Below are positions 1,109 through 62,976 of a DNA stretch of 64,000 nt, in pieces. The stretch lies in the IMG/VR virus record IMGVR_UViG_3300021963_000030. One strand, given 5' to 3'. The position numbers and the translations under genes are program-made. The first letter of the stretch is position 1; each line of letters opens with the position of its first letter. Below the pieces are notes generated by a model. The model was given only the letters and a program-made list of their open reading frames with translations. It was not told where the DNA came from and searched no databases. This DNA is from a virus.

Positions 1109-1350
1109 TTTGACACAAGCGACTCTACGCTGGTGTAAATAACACTAGAGGAAGTTCGCTGCTGCACAGCAGATGATTGGGAGACTTAAACGTCGTTAAC
1201 ACCACAAATTAGCAGTAATCCTAAATAACCCGAGTGTAGTGCTGCACGTTGAAGGGTGAGGTTGGAGCAGTTGTTTTTAACGAACAACCAGTAGCAATAC
1301 TGAGAGAAATGTAGGGATAAAACAGAACAGCGGCTATGGCTGTGTCAAAA
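1109..1350 (+). ncRNA. rnpB: Compact RNase P RNA (phage-encoded)
   Basis: P1 TTTGACACA..TGTGTCAAA; P2 CTCTAC(1123-1128)/GTAGGG(1311-1316); P3 TGGTGT/ACACTA; CR-I GAGGAAGTTCGCTG pairs with CR-V ACAGAACAGCGGCT to form P4 with the bulged U; CR-IV-like AGAGAAAT; GCAA tetraloop hairpin. Confidence 0.85.
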
Positions 1351-2907: not shown

Positions 2908-3267
2908 ATGAATAATACAAATAGATTACATATTGTGCCCAAAGGATGGGGATTTGAAAAGTGGATTGTCAACAACGAAAAGTATTGCGGCAAGATTCTG
3001 TATCTTGTCAAAGACCGTAAGTGTAGTTGGCATTATCACAAGGTCAAAGATGAAACCTTTTATGTTCAAAGTGGTAAAATTGAATTACGTTATGGTAAAC
3101 ATGATGATATCAAAATGTCTACGTCTGTGATTTTAAACAAGGGTGACCATTTTCATATTCCAATTGGATTAAAGCATCAAATGTATGCTATTGAGGATAC
3201 TGAACTATTTGAGTTTAGCACCCAACATTTTGACGAAGATAGCATTCGTCTTGAAAAGGGAGATTAA
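2908..3267 (+). CDS. Cupin-fold sugar isomerase-like protein
   Basis: KGWGFEKWI..CSWHYHKVKDETFYV and HIPIGLKHQM cupin metal-binding motifs. Confidence 0.8.
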   Translation: MNNTNRLHIVPKGWGFEKWIVNNEKYCGKILYLVKDRKCSWHYHKVKDETFYVQSGKIELRYGKHDDIKMSTSVILNKGDHFHIPIGLKHQMYAIEDTELFEFSTQHFDEDSIRLEKGD

Positions 3268-3441: not shown

Positions 3442-3669
3442 ATGAAAAAGATGATTGTGTCGTTGATTTTGATTGGCAACGTTCTAATTGCTAGTGAAGT
3501 TATCAAGGAAGTAAAGATCGAACCTATCACGGTTTACGTTGTCCGTAATGGTGATTCGGATCGATCAATTCATAAAGTTTTTTTGACAGAGAAGTCAGCT
3601 AAGAAGTATTGTGATACATACAAGGAAAGTCACAATTATGAATGTGAAGTTCTTGTGTTGACCGAATAA
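3442..3669 (+). CDS. Small protein with a signal-peptide-like N-terminus
   Basis: MKKMIVSLILIGNVLIA hydrophobic leader; directly downstream of a promoter. Confidence 0.7.
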   Translation: MKKMIVSLILIGNVLIASEVIKEVKIEPITVYVVRNGDSDRSIHKVFLTEKSAKKYCDTYKESHNYECEVLVLTE

Positions 3670-3682
3670 TACTTATTAGTGT

Positions 3683-3756
3683 GCGGGAGTGATGTAACGG
3701 TAGCCTGGGGCTCTTCCAAAGCCCACGAAAGGGTTCGATTCCCTTTTCCCGCTCCA
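3683..3756 (+). tRNA. tRNA-Gly(TCC)
   Basis: GCGGGAG/TTCCCGC, U73, anticodon arm GGGCT-CTTCCAA-AGCCC, T-loop TTCGATT, CCA. Confidence 0.95.
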
Positions 3757-3768
3757 CTTTTAAATATT

Positions 3769-3867
3769 ATGGCAACTAAAGGAATGAGACGACAACACTT
3801 ACGTAAAACCAAAAAAGGTTATTGCAATGTTAAAAGTTGTAGTGTAAAAAAGCGTAAGAAGAAGTAA
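3769..3867 (+). CDS. 32-aa highly basic peptide MATKGMRRQHLRKTKKGYCNVKSCSVKKRKKK
   Basis: ATG at 3769 after tRNA-Gly(TCC); the longer ORF-track call overlaps the tRNA; paralog of 732-854. Confidence 0.7.
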   Translation: MATKGMRRQHLRKTKKGYCNVKSCSVKKRKKK

Positions 3868-3968: not shown

Positions 3969-4353
3969 GGGCGTGTTCAGGTTTCGATTTAAGGATGCGT
4001 TCATGCTAGGCACGTAGAGGATGATAGTTGGCCTCTTTAAACGTCTATCAAAACATAACTGCTGAAGAAAACGTAGTTAGCTATGACTTCTCTTACGAGA
4101 ACACCGTAGCACTTGCAGCCTAATTAAAGGTCGCACATTTGATCAATGATTGTTCGATAGTTGATTGAATGTTATTATCGGACTATAATTGGAATGATTG
4201 ATTTGCTCATCCAATCTACCTACTTGTAAATCTTAAGAAACAAATTTTTGATGATTTAGATTTTGTTTCCTATCAAATACAAATCATACAAGCGTGTAGT
4301 CTGGTATGGATCACTTCTTAAAGACGCGAGTTCGATTCTCGCCACGTCCACCA
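3969..4353 (+). ncRNA. ssrA: tmRNA with tag peptide (A)AEENVVSYDFSYENTVALAA
   Basis: Acceptor GGGCGTG/CACGTCC with G3:U70, T-arm GCGAG-TTCGATT-CTCGC, ACCA end, resume context ATAACT-GCT at 4061, tag ORF ending ALAA-TAA at 4123. Confidence 0.95.
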
Positions 4354-4362
4354 TTTTTATTA

Positions 4363-4394
4363 AAAGACCCAAGCATAAACTTGGGTCTTTTTTT
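4363..4394. terminator. Intrinsic terminator after tmRNA, probably bidirectional
   Basis: AAGACCCAAG/CTTGGGTCTT hairpin with a T tract downstream and an A tract upstream. Confidence 0.85.
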
Positions 4395-6372: not shown

Positions 6373-6747
6373 ATGGCAAAGAGGTTTCAAACAAAAACGA
6401 TTCCATCGGAATTCAAAACGATGGATGAGTATGTTACAAAGCACAAATCGGAATTGACAGAACAAGTTATAACTGCAATAGAGTTTGCTTTAAAAAACAA
6501 TTTGACAAATGTTGAAGTGTTTGACTTCAGTGATACTGATTTTATAGTGGTTTTGAATACATCTACATTCAAAGAGAATTTGGAAAACATTTATGATTAC
6601 TATATCGACACAGAACAATATGAGTTCTGTGAGCGTGTTTTGAACTTAAAACAAATAATTAACCAAGAAAAACCTAATGAGCAAGAAAAAAGACACAAGT
6701 CCAAAAGTTCCACAAAATCCAAAAATAAGGGACTCAATCCAAATTAA
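6373..6747 (+). CDS. Hypothetical protein
   Basis: ORF preceded by TATTTATT; helical EQYEFCERV motif. Confidence 0.75.
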   Translation: MAKRFQTKTIPSEFKTMDEYVTKHKSELTEQVITAIEFALKNNLTNVEVFDFSDTDFIVVLNTSTFKENLENIYDYYIDTEQYEFCERVLNLKQIINQEKPNEQEKRHKSKSSTKSKNKGLNPN

Positions 6748-7387
6748 AAGTGTAGACTTAACTGAAAAACAAAAACAGCTCATAGAAATATTACGAGATA
6801 AAAACACAAAGTTAGTATTTGTTGCGGGACCAGCCGGAACCTCAAAAACATATACTGCTATTCTCGCAGGTTTACATTTGATTAATGATAAACGTGTTAG
6901 CGAGATGATTTATATCAGAACAGCTGTTGAAAGTAGTGATAGTAAACTTGGATTTTTGCCAGGTGAAATGGACGACAAAATGAGTCCATATATACAACCT
7001 TTGATTGATAAGTTAGAAGAGTTGTTACCAAAGTCTGATGTTGATAAATTAAAGAAGGAAGAACGTATTCATGGAGCACCAGTAAACTTTCTTCGTGGTT
7101 TGAATTGGAATGCTAAGTGTATTGTTGCAGACGAAGCACAAAATATGACCAAGAAAGAACTAACAACTCTTATTACGAGAGTTGGTGAGTTTAGTAAGTT
7201 GTATGTTTGTGGTGACCCAGACCAAAGTGATATCAATGGCAAAAGCGGTTTGACTGCAATAATGAATATATTTGACGATCAAGAAAGCCGTGACAACGGA
7301 ATTCATATATTTAAGTTTGACGAGGATGATGTGGTTAGAAGCGGGTTGGTCAAATTTATATTAAAAAAACTCAAAAAGTTTAATTGA
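6677..7387 (+). CDS. phoH: PhoH-like ATPase
   Basis: GPAGTSKT Walker A, LGFLPG, FLRGLNW, DEAQN and GDPDQSD motifs. Confidence 0.95.
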   Translation: MSKKKDTSPKVPQNPKIRDSIQIKSVDLTEKQKQLIEILRDKNTKLVFVAGPAGTSKTYTAILAGLHLINDKRVSEMIYIRTAVESSDSKLGFLPGEMDDKMSPYIQPLIDKLEELLPKSDVDKLKKEERIHGAPVNFLRGLNWNAKCIVADEAQNMTKKELTTLITRVGEFSKLYVCGDPDQSDINGKSGLTAIMNIFDDQESRDNGIHIFKFDEDDVVRSGLVKFILKKLKKFN

Positions 7388-13369: not shown

Positions 13370-13849
13370 ATGAGTATTGTTAGATATAAAGTGCCTGCAT
13401 TGCGTCCTACTGTTAAGGACGATTTCGTAACCCCATTCGATAAGTTATTCGATGAGGTTTTCACAAATACCTTCCCAGAACTTACTAAGGATTTTGGAGT
13501 TGGGTTTTTCGAAAAACAAAGTTATCCCCGTGTAGATGTAATTGATTATTCTGATCGGGTTGAAATTGTTGCGGAAATTCCAGGCCTTGAAAAGGAGGAA
13601 GTTTCTGTTGATGTTGAGGAGAATTTACTGATTATCAGTGGACAAAAGTCCAAGACAATTAGTGAGGACGACAAGAAGACTTACATTCGTAAAGAATTGA
13701 AACACAGTAGCTTTAAACGTGCTTTTGTGTTGAGTGACCTATTTGATAAGGACAATCCGTCTGCTAAGTTTGAAAATGGACTTTTGACGGTCACTGTTAA
13801 GAAGGTTAAACCTACTCCACCAACAAGTAAGCGAGTAAAAATTGTGTAA
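13370..13849 (+). CDS. Small heat-shock protein (Hsp20/alpha-crystallin family)
   Basis: YPRVDV..AEIPGL..FKRAF..AKFENGLLTV alpha-crystallin motifs; AAGGAA RBS. Confidence 0.95.
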   Translation: MSIVRYKVPALRPTVKDDFVTPFDKLFDEVFTNTFPELTKDFGVGFFEKQSYPRVDVIDYSDRVEIVAEIPGLEKEEVSVDVEENLLIISGQKSKTISEDDKKTYIRKELKHSSFKRAFVLSDLFDKDNPSAKFENGLLTVTVKKVKPTPPTSKRVKIV

Positions 13850-51635: not shown

Positions 51636-52283
51636 ATGAAAAGAGCACAAGGTAAAAGCAATCTAGAGATTGTTCAAGATTATCTGGATGGTAATAGACC
51701 ATTTATTCAAGTTGGTTATACCGACGATATTAATAACGCCACTCGTAAAGAAGGTGAAGAGTGGGAGGATAGTCAAGGACGTAAATGGATTTGGAAGAAT
51801 GGCAGCAAACGTCGTGTTCCAAAAAAGGTTATTATTGACAACAAGTGTATCTGTAAACATTGTAATGCAGATATTCGTTGGGGTAATTACCTAGACAACC
51901 AAGTTTGGCCAAAGACACATTTGTGTTATGACTGTTTTACCAAGAATGAAACACAAATGAAGTTGGAAGGAACTTGGGAGTTTTATGATCAGATCCGTGA
52001 ACTCAAGAATGAACGATCTGTTTTGACCGATTACAAAACCAAGTTTGATGAAACATTAAAGTGGTGTATAGAGAAGGAGAACAAACCACTAGAGTTTATT
52101 AATGAAGATGGTTCTATCGAAAAGTGGGAAGGTGAGAATGGTATTGAAAAAATTAAACAAGACGTTGAAAAGGATCTTGAGTTTATAAATGCTAGGTTAT
52201 TGGAAATCGACAAGTCCATTAGTAATCTAGAAAAAGACTATGAGTCAGCAAAATCTAAGAGAAATAATAAAACAAGAGTATAA
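51636..52283 (+). CDS. Hypothetical protein with CxxC..CxxC, upstream of terminase
   Basis: CKHC..CYDC; C-terminal coiled coil. Confidence 0.75.
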   Translation: MKRAQGKSNLEIVQDYLDGNRPFIQVGYTDDINNATRKEGEEWEDSQGRKWIWKNGSKRRVPKKVIIDNKCICKHCNADIRWGNYLDNQVWPKTHLCYDCFTKNETQMKLEGTWEFYDQIRELKNERSVLTDYKTKFDETLKWCIEKENKPLEFINEDGSIEKWEGENGIEKIKQDVEKDLEFINARLLEIDKSISNLEKDYESAKSKRNNKTRV

Positions 52284-53853
52284 GAAGTGTCTTGAAAATC
52301 CTATATACTTCATGAAGAAGTATGTGAAGATTCAACACCCAGTTCGTGGAACAGTAAACTTTGATTTGTTTGAGTTCCAAGAACACGCTTTGGAAGATAT
52401 GGTTGAGCACAAACTCAATATTATCTTAAAGAGTCGTCAAATGGGTATTTCTACTCTAACATCCGCATATAGTCTGTGGTTGATGACTTTTCACAGTGAT
52501 AAGAACATCTTGATCATCAGTATCACTCAAGAGACTGCAAAAGAAATTGTCACCAAAGTTAGATTTGCTAATGATAGTCTTCCAGCATGGTTAAAAGTTC
52601 CATGTGTAGAAGACAATCGTCTATCACTACGTCTTAAGAATGGATCTCAAATTAAGGCTGTATCTAGTGCTGGAACCGCAGGTCGTTCGGCAGCTTTGTC
52701 ACTTCTAATCATTGACGAAGCAGCATTCATCGATGGTATTGAAGAAATTTGGTTGTCTGCTCAATATACGTTGTCAACCGGTGGTCGAGCCATATTATTG
52801 TCTACTCCAAACGGTGTTGGTAACTTCTTTCACAAGACATGGGTTGCTGCGGAGGCTGGTGAAAATGGTTTCAATACAATCAGATTGCCATGGCATTTAC
52901 ATCCAGAACGTGATCAAGCATGGAGAGATAAACAAACAGAATTGTCTGGTGTCAAAGGTGCTGCACAAGAATGTGATTGTGACTTTTCTACATCGGGTAA
53001 TCAAGTTGTGTCTGTTGAGACCATTGAGTTTTATAAACAAACACATATCAAAGATCCAGTAGAAAAACGAGGTGCTCAACAAGATCTTTGGATATGGGAC
53101 AGACCAGATTATAGTAAGAACTACATTGTATCAGCTGACTGTGCTCGTGGTGACGGCGCCGATTATAGTGCGTTTCATATATTTGACGTTGATACACTTA
53201 CACAAGTTGCTGAATATAAGGGTCAGTTGACTACAAAAGATTACGGTAATTTGTTGGTAGCTATTGCAACAGAATACAATAATGCGATGCTTGTGGTAGA
53301 AAACAACAACATAGGTTGGGGAACTCTACAACAGATTATTGATAGAGATTACCAAAATACTTTCTACAGCACTCCAGACTTGAATGTAGTTGATGTGGAA
53401 CACAATTACACTAACAAACTAAATGCGCAAGATAGAAAGTTAGTGCCTGGATTTACAACTACAAACAAGAACAGACCTTTGATGGTATCCAATATGGAAT
53501 CATGCTTCAGGGATAAATCGGTCACTATAAGGTCTATAAGACTGTATGAGGAGTTGAACGTGTTTATTTGGAATGGACCTAAGGCTGAGGCAATGAGAGG
53601 ATACAACGACGATTTGGTGATGGCATTGAGTATTGGTTTATGGGTTCGTGGAACAGCATTGAAGTTAAGAACAGAACAAATGGCTTATACCCGAACCATG
53701 TTGGGTGGTATTACAAAAATAACAAACACAACGCCTGGTCCGTCATCACAATATAAAATCATACAATCTCCTCAAGAAACGTGGAAATTCGATACAGGAG
53801 CTAATGGTGCTCCAGGCTCAGGTAAAAAAGAATCACTAACTTGGTTGTTGTAA
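52240..53853 (+). CDS. Terminase large subunit (gp17-like)
   Basis: LKSRQMGIST, IIDEAAF, STPNG, DCARGDGADYS and NDDLVMAL motifs. Confidence 0.97.
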   Translation: MSQQNLREIIKQEYKKCLENPIYFMKKYVKIQHPVRGTVNFDLFEFQEHALEDMVEHKLNIILKSRQMGISTLTSAYSLWLMTFHSDKNILIISITQETAKEIVTKVRFANDSLPAWLKVPCVEDNRLSLRLKNGSQIKAVSSAGTAGRSAALSLLIIDEAAFIDGIEEIWLSAQYTLSTGGRAILLSTPNGVGNFFHKTWVAAEAGENGFNTIRLPWHLHPERDQAWRDKQTELSGVKGAAQECDCDFSTSGNQVVSVETIEFYKQTHIKDPVEKRGAQQDLWIWDRPDYSKNYIVSADCARGDGADYSAFHIFDVDTLTQVAEYKGQLTTKDYGNLLVAIATEYNNAMLVVENNNIGWGTLQQIIDRDYQNTFYSTPDLNVVDVEHNYTNKLNAQDRKLVPGFTTTNKNRPLMVSNMESCFRDKSVTIRSIRLYEELNVFIWNGPKAEAMRGYNDDLVMALSIGLWVRGTALKLRTEQMAYTRTMLGGITKITNTTPGPSSQYKIIQSPQETWKFDTGANGAPGSGKKESLTWLL

Positions 53854-53877: not shown

Positions 53878-55854
53878 ATGGATGACAAATCATTTCAAGA
53901 GTTAAAAAATAGGTCACTTTACGCTAGGCTGAAGAGGCTTTTTAGCAACGACGTAATCGTTCGTAACGTGGGTGGCAAAAAGCTCAAGGTCATCGATACA
54001 GATGAAATTCAGTATGCTACAGACCGTAACAGTCTAAGAGATCGTTTCAATCGTCTTAGAACTACTGCTTACAATTCGTATACCCGTGACTTTAATTTAT
54101 CATATCAAAGCAGCCGTGTAGAATTGTTTCGTGATTATGATACAATGGACATGGACCCAATTCTTGCATCAGCATTGGACATCTATGCGGATGAATGCAC
54201 AACCCGAAATGAATTGGGAGACATTATTACTGTCCGAAGCACCAACGATGACATCAAGAGTATATTAAACAATTTGTTCTATGACATCTTGAACATCGAA
54301 TTCAATCTTTGGTCTTGGACTCGTAGCATGGTCAAGTATGGCGATTTTTATTTAAGACTGCACATCAGTCCAGAATATGGTGTATACATGGTTGAGCCAC
54401 TTAGTTCATATTATGTTACCCGTGTAGAAAACGCACATTTACAAAATAAGAGCTTTGTAAAGTTCCAAGTTAATCTTCCATATGGTAATAAGATTGAAGA
54501 TCTTGAGAACTATCAAATGGCACATTTTCGTTTGTTGAGTGATAGTAACTTCTTGCCATATGGTAAGAGTATGTTGGAGGGTGCTCGTCGTGTTTGGAAG
54601 CAATTGAGTTTGATGGAAGACGCAATGTTGATTCACCGTATCATGCGTGCTCCAGAAAAACGTATTTTCAAAATTGATATTGGTAACATTCCTCCAAACG
54701 AAGTTGATAACCATATGGAGAGAATTATTCAACAGATGAAGAAGACTCCATATTTGGACCAAGCTACTGGTGATTACAATCTTCGTTTCAATCTACAAAA
54801 CATGGTTGAAGACTTTTTCTTGCCAGTTCGTGGTGGTGATAGTGGAACTGCTATTGACAATTTGCCTGGGCTTGAGTGGACTGGAACCGATGATATCGAA
54901 TATCTTCGTAACAAAATGATGGCAGCACTTAAGATTCCTAAGGCATTCTTGGGTTATGATGAATCATTGTCTGGTAAGGCTACATTAGCTGCCGAAGACA
55001 TTCGTTTTGCTAGAACAATTCAACGTATTCAACGTATTATTGTCAGTGAATTGAACAAGATTGCTGTTGTTCATTTGTATAGTCAAGGATACAGAGATGA
55101 ATCATTGGTTGATTTTAGTCTTGAACTCACCAATCCATCTACAATTTTTGAGAAAGAAAAGATTGATGTTTGGAAGAGCAAGGTTGAAGTCAGCAAAGAC
55201 ATGCAAGAACAAAAGTTGTTTAGCAAAAAGTGGATTTATGAAAAAGTGTTTGGTATGAGCGACCAAGACATGATCATGTTGCAAAAACAACTTATTGATG
55301 ATGCTAAGGGCATGTATAGATTTAAGCAGATCGAAGAAGAAGGTAACGATCCTGCATTGAACTTCCTAAAGACCAAAGGCTCAGAGGGAGGAGAAGGCGG
55401 CGGAGAAGGTGGAGCCGGCGGTGCGGAAGGGGGTAGCGCTGGTGGAGGCGAAGTAGGTGGAGGAGAAACAGGAGGTGCTGAAGCCAGCGCTACTGCTCCC
55501 GCAACTGGTGGTGCCGAAGCGGGTGGAGAAGCTCCAAAATTGACCGAAAAAGTTAAATTGTCTGCGCATGAACGAGAAGAAGCTGCTCGTAAAAAAGAAG
55601 AAGAACGTGATAGAGATCAGACTGGTAGAAAAGATGCTAGAAAATATCCATTTGGTGAAGATCCACTTGGAACACAAGAAAACAATAGAGACAGTGATTT
55701 GTCACCATCTCATAAGTATAAAAAGCGTTCGCCACTGTCTTTGGAATCAATGGAGTCGTTGTCAACAATTTTACAAGGATTAGATAAGTCCAAAGAAATT
55801 TTAAGAGAGGGAGTTTCTGGGTCTTATATGGATGAAACAAACATCAAAGAATGA
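53878..55854 (+). CDS. Portal protein (gp20-like) with a Gly/Glu-rich C-terminal extension
   Basis: LMEDAMLIHRIMRAPEKRIFKIDIGN; EDFFLPVRG; DIEYLRNK..ALKIPKAFL. Confidence 0.97.
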   Translation: MDDKSFQELKNRSLYARLKRLFSNDVIVRNVGGKKLKVIDTDEIQYATDRNSLRDRFNRLRTTAYNSYTRDFNLSYQSSRVELFRDYDTMDMDPILASALDIYADECTTRNELGDIITVRSTNDDIKSILNNLFYDILNIEFNLWSWTRSMVKYGDFYLRLHISPEYGVYMVEPLSSYYVTRVENAHLQNKSFVKFQVNLPYGNKIEDLENYQMAHFRLLSDSNFLPYGKSMLEGARRVWKQLSLMEDAMLIHRIMRAPEKRIFKIDIGNIPPNEVDNHMERIIQQMKKTPYLDQATGDYNLRFNLQNMVEDFFLPVRGGDSGTAIDNLPGLEWTGTDDIEYLRNKMMAALKIPKAFLGYDESLSGKATLAAEDIRFARTIQRIQRIIVSELNKIAVVHLYSQGYRDESLVDFSLELTNPSTIFEKEKIDVWKSKVEVSKDMQEQKLFSKKWIYEKVFGMSDQDMIMLQKQLIDDAKGMYRFKQIEEEGNDPALNFLKTKGSEGGEGGGEGGAGGAEGGSAGGGEVGGGETGGAEASATAPATGGAEAGGEAPKLTEKVKLSAHEREEAARKKEEERDRDQTGRKDARKYPFGEDPLGTQENNRDSDLSPSHKYKKRSPLSLESMESLSTILQGLDKSKEILREGVSGSYMDETNIKE

Positions 55855-61245: not shown

Positions 61246-62976
61246 ATGGACGTAAAGAGTCTACTAACAAATAATATGAATCCACAGGCAAAGCTTATGG
61301 CTGAAACCCGTGGTCTTCAAAGCAAGTGGGAAAAGACGGGTCTTCTAGAAAACACCACAGGTGTTGAGAAGGCACACATGTCAATCCTCTTGGAAAACCA
61401 AGCAAAGCAATTGTTGGACGAAGCTTCAACAACCGGCACAAGCGCAAACAGTGAACAATGGGCAGGCGTTGCTCTTCCATTGGTCCGTCGTGTATTTGCT
61501 GAGATCGCTGCTAAGGAATTCGTATCGGTTCAACCAATGAATCTCCCAAGCGGTCTTATCTTCTACTTAGACTTCAAGTATGGTTCCGGCACTCAATTGG
61601 GTCACACTGCAGGCGAAAGCTTGTTCGGTGGTAACCAAAAGAAGCTCGGTTCGACTGATGCTCCTGTGAACGGTCTCTATGGCCAAGGACGTTACGCTTA
61701 TTCTGAGCGCACCGTTTCTAGCTCAAACGCAACTGTTCTCGTAGCTACTGCAAGCTGGAACGATCTCCAATTCGATTCTGCTTTCAGTGCTTCCGTAAAC
61801 GGTTCTGGTAACGTTCCAGGTATCTACAAGATCACCTTTAACCTCGACGACAACACTGAAGCAAAGCCAGGTTCCGGTAACCTCTGGAACGTTGACTTGA
61901 ATGCAGTTCGTTCGTTCGGTGTTCAAAGTTCCGCAGGTGTAGCTCGCACTGTATTGAACACTTACGCAACCGCAGTTAACACTGGTAGCTTGGCAAACCC
62001 ATACTATCAAATTAACTTGTTCGTAAGTCAATCTGCTGGTGCTGCTGCTCCAACTACTACCCAACGTTTGAACTACACTGTTCAACCTTCGGACAACCTC
62101 CGTGGTGACTTCGAAGATGGTAAGACCGCTGGTGAAGGTTCTGGTGTTGCTAACAACGTCTATACCCAATCTATCGGAACTGACATCAAGATCCCAGAAG
62201 TCAACCTTGAGTTGAAGAGCGAACCAATCGTTGCTAAGACTCGTAAGTTGAAGGCAGTCTGGACCCCAGAACTCGCTCAAGACTTGAACGCATACCACTC
62301 TATTGATGCAGAAGCAGAACTTACTGCTCTCTTGAGTGAATATGTTTCGATGGAAATCGACCTCGAAATCCTCGACATGTTGAACGAGTCTGTAACTGGT
62401 CAAACCACTGAAGCTTGGTCCGCCCAAATCGGAACTGAATTCAGCAAGACCATCAATAACACTACCGATGTGGCTTCGTTCACACGTAATGTTAATGCTT
62501 CACCAAACAGAACCGCTTACGTAAAGAGCACTTGGTTCCAAACTCTTGGTAACAAGATCCAAAAGGTCTCTAACAAGATTCACCAATTGACTCTCCGTGG
62601 TGGTGCTAACTTCTTGGTCTGCTCCCCAGACGTTGCAACAATCTTGGAGTCTATCCCAGGTTACGTTGTAAACACTGATGGTGACCAAGCTAAGTTCGCA
62701 ATGGGTGTAAGCCGTGTTGGTAGCTTCGCAAGTCGCTTCCAAGTGTATAAGAACCCATACATGACCGATAACGCTATCCTCGTTGGTTTCCGTGGTAGCA
62801 ACTTCTTGGAGACTGGTGCTGTGTATGCCCCATACATCCCACTCATCCAAACTCCATTGGTCTATGATCCAACCAACTTCACTCCACGTAGAGGTGTAAT
62901 GACCCGCTACGCTAAGAAGGTTGTTCGTCCTGAGTTCTACGGTAAGGTCTTGATCGCTGATCTCGACACCGTATAA
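61246..62976 (+). CDS. Major capsid protein (gp23-like)
   Basis: LPLVRR..VSVQPMNLPSGLIFYLDFKY; AKTRKLKAVWTPELAQDLNAYH; YAPYIPL; GVMTRYA. Confidence 0.98.
   Translation: MDVKSLLTNNMNPQAKLMAETRGLQSKWEKTGLLENTTGVEKAHMSILLENQAKQLLDEASTTGTSANSEQWAGVALPLVRRVFAEIAAKEFVSVQPMNLPSGLIFYLDFKYGSGTQLGHTAGESLFGGNQKKLGSTDAPVNGLYGQGRYAYSERTVSSSNATVLVATASWNDLQFDSAFSASVNGSGNVPGIYKITFNLDDNTEAKPGSGNLWNVDLNAVRSFGVQSSAGVARTVLNTYATAVNTGSLANPYYQINLFVSQSAGAAAPTTTQRLNYTVQPSDNLRGDFEDGKTAGEGSGVANNVYTQSIGTDIKIPEVNLELKSEPIVAKTRKLKAVWTPELAQDLNAYHSIDAEAELTALLSEYVSMEIDLEILDMLNESVTGQTTEAWSAQIGTEFSKTINNTTDVASFTRNVNASPNRTAYVKSTWFQTLGNKIQKVSNKIHQLTLRGGANFLVCSPDVATILESIPGYVVNTDGDQAKFAMGVSRVGSFASRFQVYKNPYMTDNAILVGFRGSNFLETGAVYAPYIPLIQTPLVYDPTNFTPRRGVMTRYAKKVVRPEFYGKVLIADLDTV

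Follow-up and report, generated by a model that had tools for sequence, protein, structure and literature searches.

A miniature RNase P RNA of bacterial type A in a phage tRNA array, a member of an apparently undescribed family

RNase P RNA is one of two universal ribozymes and is regarded as a cellular gene. The stretch of DNA analysed in this work (64,000 nucleotides of IMG/VR record IMGVR_UViG_3300021963_000030, hereafter the window) raises the question of whether a phage can carry such an RNA of its own. The window is phage DNA, with genes for a large terminase (52240-53853), a portal (53878-55854), a major head protein (61246-62976), baseplate wedge and gp25 proteins, tail fibres, a primase and an SbcCD-like nuclease. 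A first-pass annotation, made from the letters alone, had proposed that this phage genome encodes an RNase P RNA with a drastically reduced specificity domain, and that proposal holds. Judged by homology and structure together, positions 1108 to 1350 of the + strand (the strand of all elements of this RNA given below) are a genuine RNase P RNA homologue, a whole miniature gene running from P1 to P1. The earlier reading of an RNA of about 242 nt closed by P1 was right as to the closing helix, but the gene starts at 1108 and is 243 nt long. We consider it probable that this is a phage RNase P RNA derived from bacterial type A, which would mature phage pre-tRNAs, likely with the RnpA protein of the host.

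Standard RNA libraries do not recognise it. None of the Rfam RNase P families (clan CL00002) matches the window at gathering thresholds, and a search of positions 1000-1500 (501 nt) at E≤10 also returned zero matches, an outcome that the first-pass annotation had itself named as speaking against its proposal. This failure is outweighed by evidence at the level of the family. Instead of a full-length covariance model, we used a sub-model of 128 positions, from the 5′ strand of P4 to the 3′ strand of P15 (R1), trained on 48 relatives with the window left out. R1 finds the window RNA at 1149-1269 (+) with 76.8 bits and E~7e-19, its sole match in the 64 kb; since a model that had never included the window points exactly here at such an E-value, the resemblance is beyond chance. 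The relatives themselves score 26-41 bits against Rfam RNase P models whose gathering thresholds are 60-84. One of them (L065) aligns end to end with the archaeal model RNaseP_arch (RF00373; 40.7 bits, E 1.6e-10) through P1, P2, P3, CR-I, P5, GCAA, P15/16, GGU, J15/2, ACAGAA and CR-V, the specificity domain of the model being skipped. Two others have sub-threshold Rfam RNase P matches placed exactly at the element (L021, E 1.1e-7; L029, E 1e-3), and one reaches 30.9 bits with RNaseP-T (L045; E 0.008, gathering threshold 60). The minimum-free-energy fold of the window RNA is no better than that of shuffled sequences (z = -1.25), and folding it as a single sequence gives P1, P3 and two small hairpins with no pseudoknots; such weak fold energy is as expected of a pseudoknotted RNA.

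The relatives were collected from IMG/VR with a pattern that consisted only of the two P4 motifs, 150-180 nt apart. Among the 72 loci so obtained, and before any filtering, the four free P4 bases on each side are fully complementary in 60, in pairs as varied as GGGA/UCCC, AUGA/UCAU, GAUA/UAUC, GCCG/CGGC and AAGG/CCUU. Two further scans, allowing shorter and longer gaps, brought the total of the three to 143 distinct sequences, in 128 of which the variable half of P4 is fully complementary, again with many different sequences; the conservation of P4 pairing across relatives, a check put forward with the original proposal, is thereby borne out. R1 recognises 66 of the 72 pattern loci and gives 68 matches overall, including the window, a locus from a 735-kb phage (L074) and a second copy in one of the genomes (L031). 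Identity to the window RNA ranges from 75% in the nearest relative to 45% in the most distant member aligned, and the distance from P4 to P4 from 150 to 234 nt, that of the window being 188. There is, then, a phage RNase P RNA family of more than 100 members in large phages, missed by standard RNA libraries and apparently undescribed, of which the window RNA is a genuine member of roughly typical size.

Two alignments carry the structural argument: a full-length one of 49 sequences (A1) and a model-based one of 55 distinct sequences (A3). Covariation scores in these are 0.48-0.54, as opposed to 0.16-0.17 after shuffling, with 0 of 500 shuffles as high. In A1 the score of 0.481 (0.160 when shuffled) falls to 0.08-0.20 if pairing partners are slid by 1-3 columns, and across alignments such slides bring it down to 0.06-0.22. 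Helices P1-P6 and P15-P17, as predicted from these alignments, are thus supported by compensatory changes among relatives. P1, P2 and P3 surround the core in canonical order and with the canonical pseudoknot topology. P1 (1108-1117/1341-1350) has 10 bp in the window, and a terminal helix of unrelated sequence occupies the same place in about 42 of 49 relatives. P2 (1123-1128, CUCUAC; 1311-1316, GUAGGG), for which the first-pass annotation had given the same positions, is paired in 95.5% of alignment cells with compensatory changes in all six pairs (A1), and the basal four pairs of the P3 hairpin (1130-1136/1142-1148) are 94% paired, also with compensatory changes (A1).

CR-I (GAGGAAGUUCGCUG, 1148-1161) holds the 5′ strand of P4 at 1153-1161, which pairs with CAGCGGCU at 1328-1335 in 8 bp with one bulged U (1155 or 1156). 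Together with J2/4 and its ACAGAA (1322-1327), the 3′ strand makes up CR-IV/CR-V, so that the universal core, a P4 formed by CR-I and CR-V with its bulged U, is present (GAGGAAGUUC at 1148; ACAGAA....GGCU at 1322). The motifs GAGGAAGTTCGCTG (1148-1161) and ACAGAACAGCGGCT, and the bulged U, had all been picked out at the start; only the end of the 3′ motif, then put at 1336, needs moving, as it lies at 1322-1335. P4 is 100% paired in A1, a figure to which pre-selection of the inner four pairs contributes; unbiased evidence for this helix comes only from the unfiltered counts given above. The first ten bases of CR-I, ACAGAA and GGCU were likewise set by the search pattern. Two details count against a wholly canonical P4. 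It is one A short of the bacterial consensus (GAGGAAGUUC as opposed to GAGGAAAGUCC), and at A1152 the A-U pair of bacteria gives way in the phage RNAs to an invariant A on the opposite side.

Inside P4, P5 (1162-1165, CUGC; 1212-1215, GCAG) is 98-100% paired (98.5% in A1, 100% in A3), with compensatory changes in four of four pairs. The P6 pseudoknot joins 1167-1171 (CAGCA) to 1240-1244 (UGCUG) in the L17 loop, in more than 15 different sequence pairs among relatives. It is 79% paired in A1, and column-wise counts for P6 and P17 in A3 are only 48-52%. These low counts result from a register that differs between subgroups, and a register-free test was therefore used for P6: the mean length of the longest Watson-Crick helix that the two regions can form is 5.5 bp, compared to 3.70 ± 0.13 when partners are swapped between relatives (maximum 4.0 in 200 permutations). 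J5/15 (UAA, 1216-1218) has the invariant AA in A1, its A1217 and A1218 corresponding to E. coli A248/A249 by numbering checked against E. coli rnpB. It leads into a P15-P16-P17 arm (1219-1266) identified by comparative pairing, which comprises P15 (1219-1221/1264-1266; 96.6% paired in A1 and 99.4% in A3, with three of three pairs compensatory), P16 (1228-1231/1254-1257; 90.3% paired in A3) and P17 (1234-1236/1245-1247), present in a register that differs between sequences. The GGU of L15, which the annotation had seen as a GGT in a P15-like stem, is at 1260-1262, with G1260 invariant and G1261 and U1262 at least 90% conserved (A1). At the position of P18 there are two hairpins (1270-1275/1283-1288 and 1290-1293/1298-1301), the second being the GCAA-tetraloop hairpin reported earlier and confirmed here at 1290-1301. 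They seem optional, being found in about 34 of 49 relatives and missing from the rest, and are 74% and 86-87% paired, with compensatory changes. J18/2 follows (GAGAGAAAUG, 1302-1311), its AG invariant in A1; this too had been noted, as the conserved motif GAGAGAAATG. All in all, direct reading and comparison with relatives place P1, P2, P3, P4, the GGT stem, the GCAA hairpin and AGAGAAAT within one base of where they had been put.

One helix of the earlier proposal does not survive. Its P5/P7-like pairing of GCTGCAC (1161-1167) with GTGTAGT (1234-1240) is paired in 51% of cells in 48 relatives, which equals the shuffled baseline; it can be drawn in the window alone and conflicts with the well-supported P4, P5, P6 and P17. 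The estimate of about 66 nt for the specificity domain has to be revised with it. P5 encloses 46 nt (1166-1211), near the modal class of the family, where 40-49 nt is commonest, and the remnant of the specificity domain proper is a stub of 39 nt (1172-1210) that consists of an interrupted helix, an internal loop and a small hairpin. This stub stands in place of a full domain of about 155 nt.

The helix of the stub is P7-like (1172-1174/1208-1210 and 1178-1180/1202-1204, the latter pairs 90.1% paired in A3), and is followed by a conserved GAG (1181-1183), an apical hairpin (1183-1185/1192-1194) and the 3′ junction GUUAACA (1195-1201). Compared by eye with E. coli M1 RNA, it lies at the position of P7, immediately 5′ of the 3′ strand of P5, and its 3′ junction GUUAACA-CC resembles GUAAACUCC of M1 RNA. 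Its conserved bases are G1180, A1182 and G1183 (54 of 54 sequences each), G1181 (49/54), U1197 (45/52), A1201 (46/53) and C1202 (47/54). Conservation of unpaired bases indicates that the stub is under selection, and on this comparative evidence it is not a random linker. One could speculate that the spacing of U and A in the junction makes a T-loop-like motif, and that the whole internal loop, GAG with G-U-U-N-N-N-A, could be a single module of that kind. Efficient recognition of tRNA by this RNA is not guaranteed, since most of the part that reads the tRNA elbow is lost.

The catalytic domain, as read from these elements, is that of bacterial type A (RF00010; E. coli M1 RNA, the product of rnpB). 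The assignment is made on the P6 pseudoknot, P16, P17 and the GGU of L15, which are hallmarks of bacterial type A, and on a module order identical to that of M1 RNA. P6 and the P16/P17 arm are absent in type B RNase P RNA, and the L15 GGU pairs with the 3′-RCCA of tRNA. Shared with M1 RNA are P1-P5 with the bulged U in P4, the P6 pseudoknot between L17 and the strand 3′ of P5, the P15-P16-P17 arm with GGU in L15, the AA of J5/15, a J18/2 motif of the AGAnAAAUG type and ACAGAA; the landmarks A248/A249, G292-U294 and the bulged U69 all have their counterparts. The differences are no less clear. The phage RNA is 243 nt long and M1 RNA 377 nt; it has no P8, P9, P13 or P14, a single short hairpin is what remains of the P10-P12 region, and of the full specificity domain, with its P7-P10 cruciform, P11-P14 and CR-II/CR-III module, only the 39-nt stub is kept. 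CR-I has one A fewer, U-G replaces C-G beside the bulged U, two small hairpins with no P8 receptor stand in for P18, and the gene is encoded by a virus. RF00010 itself matches neither the window nor the records of its relatives.

Loss of nearly the whole specificity domain with retention of the catalytic one is also known from type T of the Thermoproteaceae (RF02357, about 200 nt), and RF02357 does not match the window. Type T RNAs come from archaea, whose proteins they work with, and have no bacterial P6/P16/P17 arrangement, whereas the phage RNAs keep a conserved 39-nt specificity stub and a catalytic domain with P6, P16 and P17. A further parallel is offered by bacteria of the CPR, whose RNase P RNAs fall below Rfam thresholds and are without P12, P13, P14 and P18; these are the cells' own essential genes, and some of them are also without the GGU motif (Lui et al. 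2021, PMC8172020). In megaphages the same study detected only tRNAs and a tmRNA (PMC8172020), which means that the RNase P RNA of phages escaped notice there. Our search of full-text literature turned up no publication on an RNase P RNA encoded by a phage. The only viral precedent it gave is an RNase P-like RNA of camelpox and other orthopoxviruses, which has only a loose structural similarity and was inactive in pre-tRNA processing in vitro (cited in PMC3001073). That RNA belongs to a eukaryotic virus, whereas the phage family has a full bacterial catalytic core supported by covariation.

The spread of the family is that of a phage gene. BLASTN with the window RNA against GenBank phages gave only weak matches, to LR756501/LR756503 (735 kb), to our knowledge the largest published phage genome, where a family member is present; with a more consensus-like member as the query, it led to the cultured Stenotrophomonas phage vB_SmaS-DLP_6. 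The DLP_6 member (KU682439.2, about 105,776-106,020) scores 70.1 bits with R1 (E 1.3e-18) and is unannotated and intergenic, ending 8 nt upstream of a tRNA-Arg. In one genome per prokaryotic species, the P4 pattern finds mostly chance matches and DPANN archaeal RNAs of another kind; members of the phage family account for 2 of the 120 matches, and one of these two is on a contig of 3 kb that has 13 tRNA genes. A family member is also found on a 546-kb contig binned into a Bacteriovoracaceae MAG (L081, 5645-5763), with no tRNA in the 8 kb examined, and this contig may represent a prophage or else a huge phage that was mis-binned. The DPANN loci (Aenigmatarchaeota and Micrarchaeota; L077, L083, L087, L089, L091, L096, L099 and others) have a fully complementary P4 with only 186-204 nt between its strands and no match to the phage model; they look like compact archaeal RNase P RNAs. 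A record related to the window through a neighbouring glycosyltransferase-like gene (L001) lacks the RNA as far as 4 kb to either side.

The surroundings of the RNA in the window suggest what it may be for. Upstream of it are six tRNA genes (18-937) and a weak tRNA-like element, all on the + strand, so that its earlier placement in a tRNA operon is right insofar as it sits at the end of a tRNA array; the ribozyme role proposed along with this we infer. The tRNA-like element (1032-1105, +; Rfam tRNA 36.8 bits, CCA at 1103-1105) is a degenerate tRNA-Gln(UUG), the second of this kind, with a non-canonical T-loop (AGCGUAA) and two mismatches in its acceptor stem, and ARAGORN calls no tRNA there. 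It ends 2-3 nt upstream of P1, and likely punctuates the transcript for processing at the 5′ end of the RNase P RNA. All eight tRNA or tRNA-like genes of the window, as well as its tmRNA, encode their CCA, which fits the retention of the CCA-binding GGU. The tmRNA (3969-4353, +; Rfam 122.6 bits, tag peptide AEENVVSYDFSYENTVALAA) is preceded by a tRNA-Gly (3683-3756) and lies 2.6 kb downstream of the RNase P RNA; after it comes an intrinsic terminator (4362-4391), the sole strong one in the first 4.6 kb. No promoter-like site is predicted directly upstream of the RNase P RNA and no terminator between it and the tmRNA. With neither a promoter-like site nor a terminator of its own, the RNA is likely co-transcribed with the tRNA array. 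In the family at large, a tRNA lies within 1.5 kb in 94 of 129 members, and the other 35 have none that near; 27 abut an upstream tRNA and 33 a downstream one. The member in LR756501.1 (L074, 1480-1760) is among those with no tRNA within 1.5 kb, and an intrinsic terminator of its own, a stem-loop with a U-run, comes after it; taken together, these suggest that an independent transcription unit is possible there.

The partner protein is a separate matter. As the first-pass annotation had stated, no rnpA is to be seen in the window, and none was found among its small ORFs. A search for RnpA (PF00825) drew a blank in two complete genomes, that of DLP_6 (168 kb) and one of 488 kb with terminal repeats, as well as in LR756501 (735 kb) and in a 501-kb contig, whilst it found the protein in 10 control genomes. 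Full-size rnpB (RF00010) also has no match in LR756501, the 501-kb contig or the complete 488-kb genome. Use of the host's RnpA by the phage RNA would be a reasonable and economical reading of these searches. In such a scheme the catalytic domain would be kept whole (P1-P5, the P4 and P6 pseudoknots, the J5/15 adenosines, the P15-P17 arm with GGU, J18/2 and ACAGAA); the RNA would be transcribed jointly with the phage tRNA array, its 5′ end being set by 3′ processing of the abutting tRNA-like element. Most likely as a holoenzyme with host RnpA, it would then cleave the 5′ leaders of pre-tRNAs during infection, and probably of the phage tmRNA precursor too. The likely benefit would be an extra or host-independent capacity for tRNA maturation in a phage that brings its own tRNAs.

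A bolder version of this scheme is conceivable, though we regard it as doubtful. Large phages would carry their own RNase P, whereby their tRNA arrays would mature with no need of the host ribozyme, or more quickly than it would permit; the 39-nt stub would be the smallest natural reader of the tRNA elbow, with its specificity tuned to phage tRNAs, tmRNA and tRNA-like punctuation; and the partner would be a phage protein of no known family, or none at all, rather than host RnpA.

Less probable again is that the ribozyme is active but has been turned to non-canonical main substrates, such as the tmRNA precursor, tRNA-like punctuation or polycistronic phage mRNAs, the shrunken specificity domain relaxing the requirement for an elbow. 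The odd element with the non-canonical T-loop that abuts the RNA would fit such a role, as would a tmRNA 2.6 kb downstream with no predicted terminator in between and the 35 of 129 members, LR756501 among them, that have no tRNA within 1.5 kb. Most members, however, are inside tRNA arrays and often touch tRNAs, the CCA-binding GGU is kept, and all tRNAs of the window encode CCA; in any case, such retargeting overlaps with the maturation of phage tRNAs and does not exclude it.

We find it more improbable still that the RNA is a decoy or sponge, an RNase P-like fold that is catalytically dead and sequesters host RnpA or pre-tRNAs so as to stop tRNA maturation in the host. The failure to find RnpA in four relatives' records, the loss of most of the elbow reader and a P4 one nucleotide off consensus are what a decoy might show, and the camelpox RNA, inactive in vitro (PMC3001073), would be its precedent. 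But the residues for chemistry and docking are all conserved (the bulged U, the AA of J5/15, the L15 GGU, ACAGAA and J18/2), a decoy for RnpA has no need of GGU, P6 or P15-17, and the many tRNAs of the phage itself need the very activity that a decoy would block. As for a decaying relic of a captured host rnpB or a functionless chance look-alike, to which the want of an Rfam match in the window and the degenerate second copy in one genome (L031, 1880-2060) might point, it is effectively refuted by covariation and has next to no probability, given at least 128 distinct members with identities to the window RNA down to 45%, compensatory changes that keep the pairing, invariant single-stranded core bases and the E of 7e-19 from a model free of the window.

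If maturation of phage pre-tRNAs is indeed the role of this conserved, virus-encoded lineage, then phages import, besides tRNAs, tmRNA and synthetases, a ribozyme that matures tRNA. Genome annotation has missed the family, Rfam drawing a blank in the window and in the relatives' records tested, including that of the 735-kb phage. Its members combine a type-A catalytic core with specificity domains that nature has shortened to varying extents, a deletion series useful for asking what minimal RNA can recognise and cleave tRNA, and DLP_6 with S. maltophilia D1571, a cultured phage-host pair carrying a member, makes direct testing possible.

Some of the genomes hold further peculiarities. In the complete 488-kb phage genome L031, about 300 nt downstream of the intact RNA, there is a second, aberrant copy (about 1880-2060, - strand) in which the specificity stub, P15-17, J18/2 and ACAGGA are present and the upstream CR-I is absent; a GGGAAGUUC motif comes after the 3′ strand of P4, right before a tRNA. 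This second copy may be a paralogue, either rearranged or in decay. Another record (L028) has a permuted tmRNA (3628-3819; RF04321, 53.7 bits, above the gathering score) in a phage tRNA array that also holds a mini RNase P RNA. The window, for its part, has auxiliary genes for a cupin (2908-3267), PhoH (6677-7387) and an Hsp20/alpha-crystallin protein (13370-13849); the DNA of the cupin gene resembles cyanophage genes, with 67-72% identity to P-TIM68, S-T4 and P-SSM2, and these auxiliary genes hint at a marine T4-like lineage.
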